Below, piece after piece: positions 1 through 10,184 of a stretch of 20,689 nucleotides of DNA. Below the pieces are notes generated by a model. It had not been told where the DNA came from. It worked only from the letters and a program-made list of their open reading frames with translations, and made no database searches. Source of the stretch: Polyangiaceae bacterium (GTDB lineage: Bacteria > Myxococcota_A > Polyangia > Polyangiales > Polyangiaceae); contig JANRKO010000036.1 in the NCBI GenBank assembly GCA_033763455.1, positions 1 to 20,689 on the forward strand, given 5' to 3'. The translations under genes were made by a program, and so were the position numbers. Numbering within the stretch: position 1 is the stretch's first letter; each line of letters starts with the position of its first letter.

Positions 1-138
1 CACCATTTGGCCAAGACCTGCGCGATGTTTCCTCCGAACGCAATTCCAATAAACACAAACCGAAGAGCCGGATGCGGGAAATTCGCAAGTCCGGTTCTGT
101 AAGGAGCACCGGGTGGCAACACCCGGTGTTTACTTGAT
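1..138 (+). mobile_element. 3' end of a group II intron (domains V and VI; the rest lies upstream of the window)
   Basis: Domain V at 65-97 (GAGCCGGATGCGGGAAATTCGCAAGTCCGGTTC) has the AGC catalytic triad at 66-68, a GAAA loop and a 2-nt bulge. Domain VI at 101-135 folds as AAG-GAGCACCGGGTG-[GCAA]-CACCCGGTGTTT-A-CTT, with bulged branch-point A132 as the 7th nucleotide from a terminal AY (AT, 137-138). Confidence 0.93.
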
Positions 139-835
139 GACAGCGTTGCCGCCCAATCGAATCGTGGAAGCCAGTTTCTCGGCTGGAGCCAAACATGCCA
201 GTTTGTTCCCTCCACCGCTGGGCGTGGAAGTAGCGTTCGCAGGGCGCTCGAACGTCGGTAAAAGTAGCTTGTTGAACGCCATTATGGGTCGAAAGAACCT
301 AGTGCGCACCAGTTCAACGCCCGGCTGCACACGGCATGTTGGTTTCTTTAAAACGCGCTCCGCCGATGGGGCAGTGATAACTTTGGTGGATTTACCGGGG
401 TACGGCTACGCGAAACGTTCGAAGTCCGAACTCAAAGAGTGGAAGGAGCTGGTTGAGGCTTACCTCTTTGAACGGCCCTGTTTGCAGACCGTGGCTCTGC
501 TCGTCGATTCTCGACGTGGCCCCGAAGATCTAGATTTTCAGCTCATTGAAGCGTTGTCGGATCGGAAGACTGAGTTTCGCAAGCAGCTACCGCTGATCTT
601 GGTCGCCACCAAGCTCGACAAAATGCCGCGCTCACAACAAGCGCCGGCACTGCTGGCTATTCGTAAGGCGACCAAGCTTCCAGTAATGGGGTTCACCACC
701 GAAGATCCCGCATACATCGAGGCCCTCTGGACTGGAGTGCGCGCCAAGCTCGGGTTCGACGCTACGGGGTCTTCGGCCGTTGACTCGGAAGCGGCTAGCG
801 CCAATTCTGCTGAGACGCTCGGACGCGAGACCTAA
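137..835 (+). CDS. engB: Ribosome biogenesis GTP-binding protein YihA/YsxC (EngB)
   Basis: Motifs EVAFAGRSNVGKSS (G1), TSSTPGCT (G2), DLPGYGYA (G3) and TKLDK (G4). ATG at 137 preferred because the ORF-track GTG at 113 lies inside intron domain VI. Confidence 0.95.
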   Translation: MTALPPNRIVEASFSAGAKHASLFPPPLGVEVAFAGRSNVGKSSLLNAIMGRKNLVRTSSTPGCTRHVGFFKTRSADGAVITLVDLPGYGYAKRSKSELKEWKELVEAYLFERPCLQTVALLVDSRRGPEDLDFQLIEALSDRKTEFRKQLPLILVATKLDKMPRSQQAPALLAIRKATKLPVMGFTTEDPAYIEALWTGVRAKLGFDATGSSAVDSEAASANSAETLGRET

Positions 836-881: not shown

Positions 882-1592
882 TTACGGTACGAAGCCGAAG
901 GCCTCAACTTCGCTGAGCTCACGTTGGCAATCCCCCGCTATCGCAAAGCGATAGGGGCTGTTGGGAATGATGAAGCGCCAAGCTGGGCCGGCCTTGCTGC
1001 GGTAATATTCAATGCGCGCGGGGCGGTCGGTGGGGGCGCCTTTTTGCTTGCCGAAGGCCCAAATTTGGCTGAGCGTGCAGCGAGGCTCAGGCAGGCCATC
1101 GGAGTGGTCCACCGAACACGAAGCCTGGGAGTTGTCGGGCTCGGCCACAATTCCAAGCTTCTGAATGTGCACCCTTTGCCGACCGCAATACGTATGGCGC
1201 GGCAGTGTGCCGTGATCTCGCGGAGGCTGCGGGCCATGCCCTGGTGGGCTCTGAAAGGCGTAGCGCACGTCGGGTGAACCGGCCGAAAAATCAATTGTGC
1301 CCGCGCTCGACACGCCATCGGCAACCATGCCCCGAAGTAGATTGCGCTGGGTTAACGCCCTCGCTTTTGCCAGCGTCGCTACAGGGTCCACATGTTTCTG
1401 CCACCCCACCACGCCCTCGGTCGTGGGAGGCCCCGGCGGTTGGCTCTCTTCGGGTTGAGCATGTTCCCTAGCCCATAGCGAAAACAACAAAGAAGCGACG
1501 AACGATCCGCCGATGATGAGCAGGCCCAGGCGACGATCGTTGCGGTAGTGGAAAGGGGCGACACGTGGCCGCGGCCCGGGTTCGGTGAGCAT
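882..1592 (-). CDS. Hypothetical membrane-anchored protein (single N-terminal TM helix, Cys-containing extracytoplasmic domain)
   Basis: Long ORF with hydrophobic segment LGLLIIGGSFVASLLFSLWA preceded by basic residues, a Pro-rich linker and four Cys. ATG at 1592 chosen as start. No family recognised. Confidence 0.7.
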   Translation of the reverse strand: MLTEPGPRPRVAPFHYRNDRRLGLLIIGGSFVASLLFSLWAREHAQPEESQPPGPPTTEGVVGWQKHVDPVATLAKARALTQRNLLRGMVADGVSSAGTIDFSAGSPDVRYAFQSPPGHGPQPPRDHGTLPRHTYCGRQRVHIQKLGIVAEPDNSQASCSVDHSDGLPEPRCTLSQIWAFGKQKGAPTDRPARIEYYRSKAGPAWRFIIPNSPYRFAIAGDCQRELSEVEAFGFVP

Positions 1593-1753
1593 TGGGCCCC
1601 CTATACCTCGCGATCCGCGGCAATTCACCCGGAGTTCCGCACTTTTGCGCTTCCTCTTCCGAAAGCGCCCAACAAAGCTCGTTTGCCTCGAAAGGCTGAT
1701 TGCGATCGAGCACGCCCCGCGCTAAAAGCTCGGCCCCCCAGAAACCAGGCAAC

Positions 1754-1825
1754 GGGCGCATAACTCAGCGGTAGAGTGCCACCTTCACACGGTGGAAGTC
1801 GTAGGTTCAAATCCTACTGCGCCCA
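1754..1825 (+). tRNA. tRNA-Val (anticodon CAC), no encoded CCA
   Basis: Acceptor stem GGGCGCA/TGCGCCC, D arm ACTC-AGCGGTA-GAGT, anticodon arm CCACC-TTCACAC-GGTGG (CAC at 1786-1788), T arm GTAGG-TTCAAAT-CCTAC, discriminator A1825 followed by CAA. Confidence 0.97.
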
Positions 1826-1833
1826 CAAAGTTA

Positions 1834-1895: not shown

Positions 1896-3650
1896 TCAGG
1901 CGCGCGCACGGCGCCGCGACGCACACGCAGCGACGGCGAGCCCCGCTACAGCTAGCAGTGAGCTCGACTGCCCGGGTGGCGAAACCAACCCGCACCCACT
2001 CTTGGCCTGACCTCGCGACGCGCTCGTACCAGGGCCGCCACTGCCGGGTACCTGACTCCCCGTAGCCCCGCCAGCGGCTCGCGCGCCTCCCGAAGCTGTG
2101 CCCGGGTTGGGAAAGACCGAGACAGAACCGCCCGCCACAGCGGGACCCGCGCCACCGCTGGAGGCGACCGTGCCTCCACCGCCGGAAGCACTGTTCACGC
2201 CACCCGTTGAACTGCCGGGAGCACCGCCCACTTGCGAGGCCCCACCGGAGCCAGAAGATGCGCCGCCGGAACCTGAAGCGGCGCCACCCGAACCGGATGG
2301 ATCACCGATTGGGCCCGTCATGCCGTCGGGACCTTGGAACTCGAGTGCACCGATATCTGGAGCGCTCCCAAACGGTACCCCGCGACCCAACAGATCTTGG
2401 GTGTACCCGAGCACAGCACCGGCGTCGATGGCAGGGCTCCCAGAAAGGAGATGGAGGTTACGTGTGGCAACGTCCACGAATTTCGGATCTCCAACGACCT
2501 CACCGGCACCAAGGGCAACACTGCCCAGGGGATCTGGGTTTCCAGGGGCAAAATACACGTTGTTGCTGTGAACAGACCCCACTGGCAGCCCATCTCCGTA
2601 GACGAGAAGATCATCGCGCACGAGGAAGATGTTGTTCTTCAAGCTGAGGCCAGTAACGGCTCCGGCGTAGAGCACGGTTTCTTCGGCGGGTTCACCGCTC
2701 TTGAGAATAACGGGCGCATTGATGCGACGAATCGTATTGTTCTCAAAAGTGATGTTGGTGGCCTCATGAAACAGAAAGCCCTGCAACACGTCGTCAACGA
2801 GATTGTAGGAGAGCTTCAGGTTCTTGCCGCCTCCATTTACGGGCGTAACCTCGATAAAACCAACGTTACCAATCGACACATTGTGGTGAACGTTGAGATC
2901 TTGGATAAGTGCACCGCCCCCTGGCGCATTTTGACTATCCACCTCAATGGAGCCACCGTCGCCCCCAAAGGCGCTCAAATCCCCCAAGACGGCGTAATTT
3001 TCAAAGCGATTGTACGCGATCTCCACGCCACTCGTGCTAACGAACACCCCGATTGGCCCCCAGAGATCGCCCTGCAACATGCGTGTGCAGTCGTGAATAT
3101 GGTTGTGGGTAATCAGAGCATTCTCTCCCCCAACGCGAATGCCAATCGGAGCGTTTTTGAAGTCACTGTTCGTGACCACCGCATGGTTCGCACCGGGATA
3201 GATGTGTACCGCCCCGGTGACACCAACAGCTCCGTAGTCCGGAGCTGGCGCCCCGTCGGCAAACCCAAGGCCATCGATCACCACGTAGCTTCCGTGCACA
3301 ATGATGGAATTTCCGTTGTTGTCAGCAAAGCTCGCATTGGTGAAAAGGGGGAGCGGGCCGCTACCGTAAGAAGTCAGTGTGATGGGGGCATTCGCTGTTC
3401 CCGAAGCAGTCACGTCGAGTGACCCTGTAAACGTGCTCCCGCGCGCGAAAAGCAAGCGGTCGCCAGCCGTTAAGCTCTGGCTCTGCGCCTTGCTGAGAGT
3501 TTTCCAGGGCGCACCCATGTTACCCGCCCCGCTATCGTTGCCGGCTACGGAATCTACATAGTAGTCGGCCGCACTGGCCGTGGCAGGGGCGGCCAGCAGC
3601 GCCAATGCCAGAAACGTCAGATTTACCCCAAACCTTTGGCTATTTCGCAT
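1896..3650 (-). CDS. Secreted right-handed parallel beta-helix (pectin-lyase-like) protein with choice-of-anchor-Q-like motif, Gly/Ser linker and MYXO-CTERM-like tail
   Basis: Signal peptide (LALALLAAPATASA), YYVDSVAGNDSGAG...PWKTL start, N/I-rich beta-helix rungs, LLSGSPAIDAG...PDIGALE motif, and C-terminal SGC-linker-hydrophobic helix-RRRAR. Confidence 0.85.
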   Translation of the reverse strand: MRNSQRFGVNLTFLALALLAAPATASAADYYVDSVAGNDSGAGNMGAPWKTLSKAQSQSLTAGDRLLFARGSTFTGSLDVTASGTANAPITLTSYGSGPLPLFTNASFADNNGNSIIVHGSYVVIDGLGFADGAPAPDYGAVGVTGAVHIYPGANHAVVTNSDFKNAPIGIRVGGENALITHNHIHDCTRMLQGDLWGPIGVFVSTSGVEIAYNRFENYAVLGDLSAFGGDGGSIEVDSQNAPGGGALIQDLNVHHNVSIGNVGFIEVTPVNGGGKNLKLSYNLVDDVLQGFLFHEATNITFENNTIRRINAPVILKSGEPAEETVLYAGAVTGLSLKNNIFLVRDDLLVYGDGLPVGSVHSNNVYFAPGNPDPLGSVALGAGEVVGDPKFVDVATRNLHLLSGSPAIDAGAVLGYTQDLLGRGVPFGSAPDIGALEFQGPDGMTGPIGDPSGSGGAASGSGGASSGSGGASQVGGAPGSSTGGVNSASGGGGTVASSGGAGPAVAGGSVSVFPNPGTASGGARAAGGATGSQVPGSGGPGTSASRGQAKSGCGLVSPPGQSSSLLAVAGLAVAACASRRRARA

Positions 3651-7491: not shown

Positions 7492-8193
7492 ATGAAAACG
7501 TTCGTCATTACGGGCGCCACGAGCGGCGTTGGCGCGGCCCTCGCCCATCACCTTGCACACCAGGGGCACACCGTATTCGCTCTCGCCCGCAACGCTCAGA
7601 AGTTAGCAGCGCTTGCGCTCAATTTCCCTGACAAAATCCGTACCTGTCCGTGCGACGTTCGGGATCGCCAAGCCGTGGCGCGGGTCGCCGAAGGGATCTT
7701 GAAGGGCGGCGCCCAAATCGATGTACTGATCAACAACGCCGCCATCTTTGACATGCGGCCGTTCGTCGAACAATCCCTAGATGTGGCCGATCAGATCCTC
7801 GAAACGAATCTTAACGGCACCATCTATTGCACCCACGCGTTTTTGCCGCACCTGATCAGCAAGAAGCAGGGTGTCATCTTGAACATCGCGTCGGTTGCCG
7901 GCACCCGCGGCATCGAAGATCAAGCCGTATATTGCGCCTCCAAACACGGCATGGTCGGTTTTGGGGACGCGTTGGCGCAGGAATTGAAGCCGCACGGCGT
8001 ATTGGTCTGCACCTTGTGCCCAGGTGGCATCGATACTGAGCTTTGGCGCGAAGGCTCCGTTCGTTATCCGGGGGATATCAGCTCCGCCATGACCACAAAG
8101 AACCTTGTAGATCTCGTCGACTTCGTACTGAGCCAGCCGAACAACGTGTTGTTCAAAAAGCTCATCTTCTTCCCGACTGGGGAGTGGCACTGA
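7492..8193 (+). CDS. SDR family NAD(P)-dependent oxidoreductase
   Basis: TGATSGVG Rossmann motif, NNAA, catalytic Ser and YCASK, PGGIDT. Confidence 0.92.
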   Translation: MKTFVITGATSGVGAALAHHLAHQGHTVFALARNAQKLAALALNFPDKIRTCPCDVRDRQAVARVAEGILKGGAQIDVLINNAAIFDMRPFVEQSLDVADQILETNLNGTIYCTHAFLPHLISKKQGVILNIASVAGTRGIEDQAVYCASKHGMVGFGDALAQELKPHGVLVCTLCPGGIDTELWREGSVRYPGDISSAMTTKNLVDLVDFVLSQPNNVLFKKLIFFPTGEWH

Positions 8194-8524
8194 ATGTGCG
8201 AAGGTGGTCTCAAGTCGCTTGCGGCTCCACGCGCATCCTCTAGCTACCTCGTTTGAAAACGCATTCTGGTTCAGCGTGCACGGAATTCTCTTCGCCAAGT
8301 TCGCCAAGCCCGAAGCACGGGTAGGCTAGCAAGTTCCTTCTGGTGAACACTCGGAACGGTCAGCCTTACGGGGATGGTCGACAAAGTGGCGCGCCCTTGC
8401 ACTGGCGCGGAGGTGGCTCAACCTCCGGCCGCCCCCCAAAATCCGCCTCAACATCTACGCAATAGCTCGGTCCAAGGCTCCGGGATTGACGGCGCCCCGC
8501 TTCGGCGCTTGGTTTGCGGCCCTC

Positions 8525-10066
8525 ATGAACCAAAAAGCCCAGAGCCAGGAAAAGACCGCTATCAGCCCCCGCCGGGATCAGGACTTCCCCGAGTGGTACC
8601 AGTCTGTGGTGCGCGAGGCCGATCTCGCAGAGAACTCGGATGTGCGCGGCTGCATGGTGATCAAGCCGTGGGGCTACGGGATCTGGGAAGGCATCCAGCG
8701 CCGGCTGGATCGGGTGTTCAAGGACACCGGGCACAAGAACGCGTATTTTCCCCTCTTCATCCCACTCTCCTACTTGGCCAAGGAAGCCGAACATGTCGAG
8801 GGCTTTGCCAAGGAGTGCGCGGTGGTAACGCACCATCGCTTGGAAGCCGCACCCGGCGGCGGGCTACGCCCAGCCCCGAGCGCCGAGCTCGTAGAGCCAC
8901 TCGTAGTGCGGCCCACTTCTGAAACGATCATCGGTGCGAGCTTTGCCAAATGGGTGCAATCGTATCGCGACCTGCCAATTCTTATTAACCAATGGGCCAA
9001 CGTGGTGCGCTGGGAGATGCGCCCCCGCGTTTTCCTACGTACGGCGGAATTCCTCTGGCAGGAGGGGCACACGGCACACGAGACCGAAGCGGAGGCACGC
9101 GAAGAAACCGCGCGCATGCTGCGCGTCTACGCTGACTTTGCTCGCGACTATCTCGCTGTGCCGGTTTTTACTGGAAAAAAGACCGATGGCGAGCGTTTTC
9201 CCGGGGCGGTGGAGACCTTGTGTGTCGAAGCTTTGGTGCAGGATCGGAAAGCAATTCAAGCTGGAACGTCACACTTTCTGGGGCAAAACTTCGCGCGTTC
9301 CAGCGGCATACGCTTCCTCTCTCGCCAGAATCAGGAAGAGCATGCTTGGACCACAAGCTGGGGCGTGAGCACGCGTTTGGTGGGCACCCTAATTATGGTG
9401 CACGCCGACGACGACGGAATGATCGTGCCGCCGCGTGTGGCGCCCACGCACGTGGTGATCTTGCCCGTAACGCCGAAGCCTGAGACGCGGGATGCCGTGA
9501 TAGCTGCGGCACGCGAACTCGCGGACCGCATCCGCGCCGAGCAGTTCAACGGCGCTCAGATAGAGGTGGAGGTAGATGCTCGTGATCTGCCGGGTGGTAC
9601 GAAGAGCTGGGAGTGGGTCAAAAAAGGCGTCCCAGTTCGCCTGGAGATCGGGCCGCGCGACATCGAAAAGGGCACGGTGGCGCTCTATCGGCGTGACCAG
9701 CCGGTTAAGGAGAAGACGTTCCCGGAGGTTGCTGGAGTGCCCGCCGCTTTGCCTGGGCTCCTGCAAGGCATTCAGGATGCGTTGTACGCACGCGCGCTCG
9801 CACTCCGCGAGGCCCACACCGTGCGCGTGGACACCGAACAGGACTTCTACGCCTTTTTTACACCCAAAAACCCAAACAAACCCGAGATCCACGGCGGCTT
9901 TGCCCTGGCCCATTGCGCACCCACCCGTGAGCTTGAGGAACGCCTGAAGGCCGACCTCAAGGTGACGGTTCGCTGTATCCCCGACGACGCTAATCCGGAG
10001 CCAGGTACCTGCATTTTTACAGGCAAGCCCAGTGCCCAACGGTTAGTCTTCGCCAAATCTTATTGA
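8525..10066 (+). CDS. proS: Proline--tRNA ligase (archaeal/eukaryote-like type, no insertion editing domain)
   Basis: Motifs DFPEWY, VRPTSET, QWANVVRWE..PRVFLRTAEFLWQEGHT, QAGTSHFLGQNF, TSWGVSTR and conserved C-terminal FAKSY. ATG at 8525 preferred over TTG at 8486. Confidence 0.97.
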   Translation: MNQKAQSQEKTAISPRRDQDFPEWYQSVVREADLAENSDVRGCMVIKPWGYGIWEGIQRRLDRVFKDTGHKNAYFPLFIPLSYLAKEAEHVEGFAKECAVVTHHRLEAAPGGGLRPAPSAELVEPLVVRPTSETIIGASFAKWVQSYRDLPILINQWANVVRWEMRPRVFLRTAEFLWQEGHTAHETEAEAREETARMLRVYADFARDYLAVPVFTGKKTDGERFPGAVETLCVEALVQDRKAIQAGTSHFLGQNFARSSGIRFLSRQNQEEHAWTTSWGVSTRLVGTLIMVHADDDGMIVPPRVAPTHVVILPVTPKPETRDAVIAAARELADRIRAEQFNGAQIEVEVDARDLPGGTKSWEWVKKGVPVRLEIGPRDIEKGTVALYRRDQPVKEKTFPEVAGVPAALPGLLQGIQDALYARALALREAHTVRVDTEQDFYAFFTPKNPNKPEIHGGFALAHCAPTRELEERLKADLKVTVRCIPDDANPEPGTCIFTGKPSAQRLVFAKSY

Positions 10067-10184
10067 CGCGTCCTCTGCACCAAGAGGCGCTAGAGCCTCC
10101 CTGTGGCGCGTCGTTCATAGTTCGCGCGAAAGATGCTAGGGTCCACAACAAGAAGGCCCACTCTTCAACCAGGGAGCTCACTCC

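Follow-up and report, generated by a model that had tools for sequence, protein, structure and literature searches.

A group II intron ending inside the engB start codon of a Polyangiaceae bacterium, and an apparent lineage of start-codon insertions

How can a mobile intron occupy the first codon of a gene that its host can probably not do without? EngB is a GTPase that is essential in model bacteria, and engB is probably essential in the organism considered here. The question is raised by a stretch of 20,689 nucleotides (the window in what follows; contig JANRKO010000036.1 of assembly GCA_033763455.1, from a Polyangiaceae bacterium), in which positions 1-138 are the 3' end of a retromobile group II intron, with the 3' splice site between 138 and 139, inside the ATG of engB. 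The reading that we favour, with a probability of about 0.7, is that the intron belongs to a lineage without endonuclease domain that sits in NTG start codons, rebuilds an AUG, and couples the UGA stop of its intron-encoded protein (IEP) to the AUG of the host gene.

The intron end and the native start of engB

The whole Rfam model for the catalytic 3' part of group II introns (RF00029, Intron_gpII, model positions 1-77) matches the plus strand of the window at 63-138 with 54.1 bits (E 2.5e-08; gathering score 40), and the terminal AY of the model falls on A137-T138. A single-strand RNA fold of positions 1-160, from which the coordinates of domains V and VI were taken (Table 1), agrees with the Rfam alignment. 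Domain V forms a helix with the AGC triad, the two-base bulge and a GNRA-type loop, and domain VI has a single bulged A, A132, 6 nt before the last intron base, as expected of a branch point lying 6-8 nt from a 3' end in AY. A first-pass annotation of the window had proposed these two domains, this branch point, a splice site after T138 and a start codon at 137-139; all its positions agree to within one base with Rfam, fold and sequence, its central claim that the splice site lies inside the engB ATG is borne out, and the Rfam check that it advised gave the full-length match above. The intron end is also delimited by comparison: six DNA copies from three genomes (the window and loci L001, L002, L004, L005 and L007) align through G139 and have no similarity beyond, the exon base at +2 being A in five of the six. 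Between the window and the copies of the La2 metagenome-assembled genome (MAG), domain VI shows two compensatory changes, A-U to C-G at 108-127 and C-G to U-A at 110-125.

The open reading frame (ORF) that begins at ATG 137-139 encodes the EngB/YihA/YsxC GTPase (NCBIfam TIGR03598, 169.8 bits for a cut-off of 124.45; Pfam MMR_HSR1). We aligned it with 20 relatives picked among the 120 listed in the protein collection. The G1 motif GRSNVGKSS is invariant across these 21 sequences, the TIGR03598 match begins at residue 13, and the relatives mostly begin within a few residues of the same alignment column as the window protein. The closest relative among the 120 listed (P0122, 84-88% identical) has the N-terminus MAELPANRIVEASF, to be compared with MTALPPNRIVEASF in the window. 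This agreement places ATG137 at the native start position of engB, so that the coincidental ATG against which the first-pass annotation had cautioned is not what we find. An in-frame GTG at 164, downstream of ATG137, may also act as a start of engB.

The window begins within the intron, and domains I-IV are therefore not visible at engB; of the intron ORF, the last 44 codons are seen, anything further upstream lying outside the window. A scan of genome contigs with the 33-mer of domain V (65-97) gave exact matches at seven public loci. Four of them (L001, L002, L004 and L005) are contigs of one Polyangiales MAG, each of which ends 64-65 bases upstream of domain V, that is, at the first intron base of the window, plus or minus one. 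In addition, almost all IEP homologues are on contigs of an intron's length, about 2 kb. Since contigs of another MAG break at the same intron base, which is the signature of a repeat in a de Bruijn assembly, the left edge of the window is probably an assembly break within a multi-copy intron and not a biological truncation. No 5' part of the intron is present at the far end of either the window or L005, and a blastn search of the collected loci and the window with the complete intron described below returned 3' ends only, with no further 5' junction.

Two of the seven loci were rejected as members of the lineage. In L003 (8304-8336, a Planctomycetota MAG) and L006 (10001-10033, minus strand, a Thermoplasmatales MAG, I-plasma), the 33-mer is identical to that of the window; domain VI differs, L003 has a D1D4-4 ribozyme and L006 no D1-D4 family, and the junctions, read by eye, are AC|C and AT|C. 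Introns that are otherwise unrelated, and from different domains of life, can thus have one and the same core domain V helix.

A complete relative and insertions at start codons

The seventh locus, L007, from a Polyangiaceae MAG, is 92% identical to the window across 131 nt and has 10 kb upstream of domain V. It contains a match to the Rfam family RF02005 (D1D4-6) at 8174-8453 (109 bits, threshold 49), an IEP ORF at 8619-10073 and domains V-VI at 9999-10074 (RF00029, 54.1 bits). The 484-residue IEP is a reverse transcriptase (RT)/maturase according to TIGR04416 (328.6 bits, cut-off 300) and Pfam RVT_1; RVT_1 is the only reverse-transcriptase family that it matches in Pfam, and no HNH or other endonuclease match was found there. 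Its YADD motif is invariant in the 40 aligned IEP homologues. These profile matches, with the last 44 codons present in the window, identify an intron-encoded RT/maturase. Upstream of the ribozyme match, L007 has only two GUGYG candidates, at 8116 and 8118. The sequence at 8118, GUGCGUCACG (GUGCG), aligns with the 5' ends of two introns of the same D1D4-6 family, GUACGUCAUG in L008 and GUGCGACAAG in L009; the first of these is common to L008 and L010, the boundaries having been set by comparing both copies. From this alignment, the L007 intron extends from 8118 to 10074 (1957 nt), with 501 nt between its 5' end and the ATG of the IEP. Its 5' end lies 56 nt before the start of the D1D4-6 model, compared with 34-35 nt in L008 and L009. 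About 22 extra nt are found near the 5' end, at 8153-8171, relative to these two introns; they form a palindromic hairpin, CUCGGGGGACGUCCCCGAG.

The first-pass annotation had advised looking upstream for the GUGYG 5' end and RT ORF of the engB intron, and for a 5' exon ending in AT, GT or TT behind a Shine-Dalgarno sequence. Both the GUGCG end and the RT ORF are present in the 92% identical relative, while at engB this region is outside the window. As for the exon, that of L007, the sole one seen, ends in ...GCGACGT, with GT and not AT. The ligated exons read GTG ACT GCT. The uninterrupted host gene of L007 would thus begin with GTG, and the AT of the intron would turn it into ATG on the unspliced RNA.

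In the six DNA copies, the intron ends in ...TTTACTTGAT and is followed by an exon G, and in each case the ATG so formed opens an ORF, of 232 codons in the window, 80 in L001, and 617, 108, 435 or 373 in the others. The host products are EngB, a GH44 glycoside hydrolase, an HD-domain protein and three proteins without family match in Pfam and NCBIfam. By eye, the N-terminus of the GH44 ORF looks like a lipoprotein-type signal peptide. The 80-residue product of L001 had the look of a VapB-type antitoxin; it matched no family in Pfam or NCBIfam, and we make no claim for it. As a control, ATGs that open at least 80 codons were counted in the same six sequences, where they represent 388 of 1523 (25%); the product of the chance fractions reaching each observed junction ORF length is 1.6e-07. 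The four copies of the Polyangiales MAG have identical intron ends over 138 nt, yet lie before four different genes. A seventh junction was found at the protein level, with the peptide encoded by the intron end in the host-gene frame as query (three candidates, one match): P0241 reads ...ATPGVYL-M and continues, by eye, as the N-terminus of a Ser/Thr kinase with its glycine-rich loop. This 118-residue fragment contains no Pfam family.

Taken together, these junctions make it well supported that members of the lineage, inserted after the second base of the codon, target the start codons of unrelated genes. The start-codon strategy that the first-pass annotation had suspected at engB thus finds its parallel in all the other DNA copies, which end in the same way at an ATG. 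The intron has an IIB-like D1D4-6 ribozyme and an RT/maturase of about 474-484 residues; its lineage is mostly metagenomic, and occurs here in Polyangiales-type Myxococcota.

An intron frame that runs into the host gene

A second property of these introns is the course of the IEP frame. In L007 it stays open across domains V and VI, whose translation makes up the last 24 residues of the IEP, and ends at a TGA (10071-10073) that has one base in common with the ATG at 10073-10075; the window has the same TGATG arrangement. We asked how general this frame is among the best 120 of 7420 IEP homologues with E <= 0.001 (8000 candidates scored). The in-frame translation of domain V is present in all 120 (54-100% identical), and the C-terminus is of the form xT in 117 (FT in 104, ST in 8, LT in 5), corresponding to ...UUU ACU UGA; the other three end in LA, AP and RS. 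Counted from the KSRM motif to the C-terminus, 118 of the 120 have 23, 24, 25 or 26 residues. Tail length thus varies in steps of whole codons, meaning that domain VI changes its length by whole codons only. Over the 60 bases that precede domain V, the three distinct DNA versions differ preferentially at third positions of the IEP frame, with 4-5 synonymous codons in this frame compared with 1-3 in the others. In the plasmid relatives L008-L010, as is usual, the stop codon of the ORF lies upstream of domain V, at a distance of 88 nt in L008.

The part of the protein encoded by the ribozyme core does not appear to fold. In an AlphaFold2 model of the L007 IEP, made with 40 aligned sequences, mean confidence (predicted local distance difference test, pLDDT) is 83.7 and the chain is confidently modelled to about residue 450, while residues 458-484, encoded by domains V and VI, have a pLDDT below 50. 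The tail is therefore predicted to be disordered, without a fold of its own, although such a prediction is weak evidence. A search with the last 75 residues against 1.84 billion cluster representatives gave 66 matches at E <= 0.001 and 11 at E <= 1e-10, numbers that indicate a compact lineage. In one protein, P0290 (679 residues), residues 2-38 match residues 1-37 of this C-terminal query; its gene call may start inside an intron ORF and continue into an unrelated sequence.

How could such an arrangement work? A ribonucleoprotein of intron RNA and IEP would reverse-splice into NTG start codons, where the exon G at +1 would pair with exon-binding site 3 (EBS3) and the (A/G)U at -2/-1 with the 5' end of EBS1. 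At engB, the insertion would put about 2 kb of intron between the gene and its promoter and ribosome-binding site, and splicing would restore the native leader and the NUG start. On the unspliced RNA, engB could be translated by termination-reinitiation coupling, ribosomes starting anew at UGAUG after completing the intron protein. Such a route would make an insertion before a probably essential gene less costly, and would account for the conservation of the frame through domains V and VI. That translation of the host gene is coupled to that of the intron protein is our inference from the geometry of stop and start and from the conservation of the frame. The same-strand TGATG overlap typical of coupled gene pairs is present in all six copies, and is a concrete candidate signal for engB expression. 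A promoter scan of positions 1-2000 of the window found no sigma-70-like site.

Several points weigh against this proposal. The engB copy is seen over 138 nt only, any further part of it and its 5' exon lying outside the window, and the start of P0122 might itself be intron-made if its locus carries the same insertion. All junction sites come from a few related genomes. Four of the seven host ORFs have no protein family, so that their native starts are judged from ORF length only, and P0241 came from a search designed to find such junctions. The single 5' exon, that of L007, ends in GT, and for this reason the target seems to be NTG and not ATG. Since no EBS1 or EBS2 could be assigned, and one 5' exon is at hand, the recognition of NTG by EBS3 and EBS1 is a conjecture: EBS1/EBS2 candidates sought in domains I-III of L007, L008 and L009 as complements of the 5' exons were short or lay in conserved Rfam stems, and the L009 candidate CCGGGGU occurs without change in L007 as well, where the exon has no complementarity to it. 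Structure, moreover, constrains the part of domain VI in which the UGA is found, and the position of this stop could be a by-product. Finally, ribosomes travelling through domains V and VI would unfold the ribozyme, so that coupling and splicing would be impossible simultaneously on one molecule.

Four other scenarios are considered. The one closest to our proposal accepts the same intron and the same targeting, and gives the TGATG no role: engB would be made from spliced mRNA only, and the ORF extension would serve the IEP or merely reach, as the first stop of its frame, the structurally fixed UGA close to the 3' splice site. The UGA is indeed within the conserved 3' end ...UUUACUUGAU, and the ribozyme thus constrains where it can lie; the IEP tail, being basic (KHKPKSRMREIRKSGSVRS), could help nucleic-acid binding; and efficient splicing is generally taken to be required of group II introns that reside in housekeeping genes, according to the sections of PMC4424553 that deal with them. 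A neutral termination position would not lead one to expect, however, that the frame is kept over changes in domain VI length in 117 of the best 120 homologues. The rebuilt AUG abuts the stop in six of six DNA copies, and the predicted disorder of the tail speaks, weakly, in the same direction. We regard this scenario as rather unlikely. A different way to express engB would be translation of the unspliced RNA from within domain VI, where the Shine-Dalgarno-like AAGGAG and the in-frame GTG113 would give EngB an 8-residue extension, MATPGVYL, with no reinitiation at ATG137. The 5' strand of domain VI (101-115) reads GUAAGGAGC, both elements are invariant in the six copies, the GTG lies 6 nt after the AAGGAG, and in the fold G104 and G106 form G-U pairs instead of Watson-Crick ones. 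Both elements, nevertheless, are buried in the domain VI helix, and the window EngB entry in the protein collection is the 232-residue ATG form. The two could be an intron-borne initiation site adding 8 residues, or merely the usual purine-rich strand; as purine-rich 5' strands are common in domain VI, judging from the Rfam consensus, we give them little weight and hold initiation at GTG113 to be improbable.

The same AAGGAG and GTG113 would suit a dead 3' remnant lying before engB, from which nothing is spliced and in or upstream of which the signals of engB would be found. The visible intron is, after all, 138 nt only, and bacterial intron copies are mostly truncated or inactivated according to the parts of PMC4424553 devoted to this point. 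Decay is at odds, however, with 44 visible IEP codons that are intact and match the family consensus, with a domain VI whose pairing is kept by the two compensatory changes, with IEP homologues residing mostly on intron-sized repeat contigs of about 2 kb, and with a window edge at the very base where four contigs of another MAG break off. A remnant is in our opinion hardly probable. The last scenario denies any targeting: the intron would home to a specific sequence in the ordinary way, or insert at random between genes, and its place at a start codon would reflect coincidence or survivorship. The exon G at +1 is fixed, presumably by EBS3, and an ATG is therefore formed at every insertion whatever the context; one ATG in four opens at least 80 codons in this 60% G+C DNA. 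This does not account for long ORFs at six junctions of six, with the chance product given above, nor for an EngB start that aligns with those of relatives. Beyond +2, there is no similarity between the 3' flanks of the four identical copies of the Polyangiales MAG; the conventional introns L008 and L010, by contrast, agree over about 25 nt on the 5' side and about 5 nt on the 3' side. Survivorship alone, besides, would not put every copy exactly at AT|G, and we therefore tend to exclude the absence of targeting as extremely unlikely.

Known introns, gene pairs and the surroundings of engB

The first-pass annotation had likened the engB intron to the Avi.groEL type. This belongs to the IIB1 clade of Michel, Costa, Doucet & Ferat 2007 (Avi.groEL, EcKTE56.groEL), whose members lie within or next to initiation or termination codons according to the passages on this clade in Gomes et al. 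2025 (PMC12584367). In the same passages, Avi.groEL is placed between the second and third base of a stop codon, where a functional codon is rebuilt (UAA to UAG); the clade is described as proteobacterial and homing to one conserved site, with an RT of the CL1 lineage that has an endonuclease domain and a subdomain Ia of 300-700 nt near the 5' end, EcKTE56.groEL measuring 3228 nt. The way in which the clade finds its codons is stated there to be unknown, and the member studied is the stop-codon one only. The engB intron resembles this clade in its position at an initiation codon, between the second and third base, with a functional codon rebuilt. It differs in that its L007 relative has no large 5' insertion (56 nt to the model start, 501 nt to the IEP start, 1957 nt in total) and an IEP of 484 residues with RVT_1 only and no HNH match, and in that the present introns come from Myxococcota MAGs and lie before at least four different genes of one genome. 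The absence of an endonuclease domain and of an insertion the size of subdomain Ia sets the lineage apart from the clade as described, and the Avi.groEL assignment is not borne out beyond the codon position. The small hairpin of L007 sits roughly where the IIB1 clade carries its subdomain Ia. Against PDB, the best match of the L007 IEP is the class C GsI-IIC RT (168 bits), followed by a 6me0 chain (116 bits), presumably the CL-type T.el4h RT.

Relatives are also found among D1D4-6 introns that likewise lack the endonuclease domain, on S. meliloti pSymB/pHRC017 and a Legionella anisa plasmid (L008-L010). They match the same Rfam D1-D4 family with 92-145 bits, have a 5' end similar to that of L007, and encode IEPs 34-43% identical to it. 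They differ by an ltrA that stops before domain V, by a long conserved target in two copies, by a 3' junction that does not fall at an ATG, and by the lack of the L007 hairpin and its roughly 22 nt. The Sinorhizobium meliloti plasmid intron, present in two replicons (L008 1990-3887, L010 691-2586), starts with GUACG instead of GUGYG; an identification of L010 with RmInt1 was rejected, the published intron-binding site 1 joined to GUGYG giving no match. A plasmid tblastn search with the IEP found nothing above 42.7% identity among up to 5000 records. Group g2 of Toro & Martinez-Abarca 2013 (PMC3552965) contains Myxococcus and Sorangium introns with the motif FADD; we rejected membership in it, as the present IEP has YADD.

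Two further comparisons concern the target and the overlap. IIC introns insert after terminator hairpins or attC sites, away from coding starts and with many sites per genome, in the passages concerned of PMC12584367 and PMC4424553. The present lineage would be like them in recognizing a generic genomic feature rather than one unique sequence, the feature being a start codon instead of a terminator or attC. TGATG overlaps are a recognized setting for termination-reinitiation (PMC6728339), and overlapping TGATG or ATGA gene pairs have the same one-base geometry as the IEP stop and the engB start. Here, unlike in such pairs, the upstream ORF is that of a retroelement and runs through the ribozyme core; insertion creates the pair and splicing would remove it. 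In the literature that we consulted, we found no start-codon lineage besides the IIB1 clade, no IEP ORF that runs through domains V and VI, and no stop-start overlap with a host gene, although Michel 2007 and Simon 2008 could report such cases. The lineage is thus apparently undescribed, the second one at start codons, without endonuclease domain and with its own frame fused to the host start.

The survival of bacterial group II introns is usually ascribed to their keeping out of genes, or to homing at a single specific site. A second, unrelated lineage in the start codons of many genes of one genome would show that start codons as such can be a retroelement target, and its many natural sites would allow recognition rules to be derived. 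An intron ORF that overlaps domains V and VI as well as the host AUG would link translation, ribozyme folding and host-gene expression in a testable way. The review of Zimmerly & Semper 2015, in its treatment of targets, counts three bacterial specificities, namely homing sites, terminators and attC. Tentatively, and with somewhat less than even odds, a fourth might be added: generic reading of NUG by the 5' end of EBS1 and by EBS3, with an RT ORF that hands the ribosome to the host gene at UGAUG. Such an intron without endonuclease domain could settle in the first codon of many unrelated genes, a probably essential one among them, and each insertion would then be a bicistron made by a retroelement and reversible by splicing. 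An intron that seeks out start codons generically might also attract interest as a tool for gene targeting or expression control.

Table 1. Features of the window at and downstream of the intron end
Feature	Position	Strand	Basis or remark
Group II intron, 3'-terminal 138 nt (domain IV/ORF end, domain V, domain VI)	1-138	+	RF00029 match 63-138; 92% identity to L007
End of IEP ORF, last 44 codons and TGA, open at 5' side, reading through domains V and VI	3-137	+	ORF list; C-terminus of L007
Domain V (AGC triad 66-68, GAAAU loop 78-82, two-base bulge 88-89)	64-98	+	Rfam and RNA fold
Domain VI with bulged branch-point A132	100-136	+	Rfam and RNA fold; compensatory pair changes
Shine-Dalgarno-like AAGGAG in 5' strand of domain VI, 6 nt before GTG113 (engB frame)	101-106	+	Read from the sequence
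TGATG, IEP stop (135-137) overlapping engB start (137-139) by one base	135-139	+	Invariant in 6 of 6 copies
engB (yihA/ysxC), 232 codons and stop, first two bases intron-derived	137-835	+	TIGR03598, Pfam MMR_HSR1, N-terminal alignment
248-codon ORF between engB and tRNA-Val	882-1628	-	No Pfam family
tRNA-Val (anticodon CAC), about 0.9 kb downstream of engB	1754-1826		Rfam 72.3 bits and ARAGORN
584-residue right-handed beta-helix protein	1896-3650	-	Long Gly/Ser/Ala-rich C-terminal tail, hydrophobic end

The remainder of the window is ordinary chromosomal DNA, with the tRNA-Val gene and genes for the beta-helix protein, a GH38 mannosidase, an SDR protein, ProRS, an HDOD protein, an MFS transporter and a trypsin-like protease. 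From its sequence, the beta-helix protein looks like a secreted or anchored protein.

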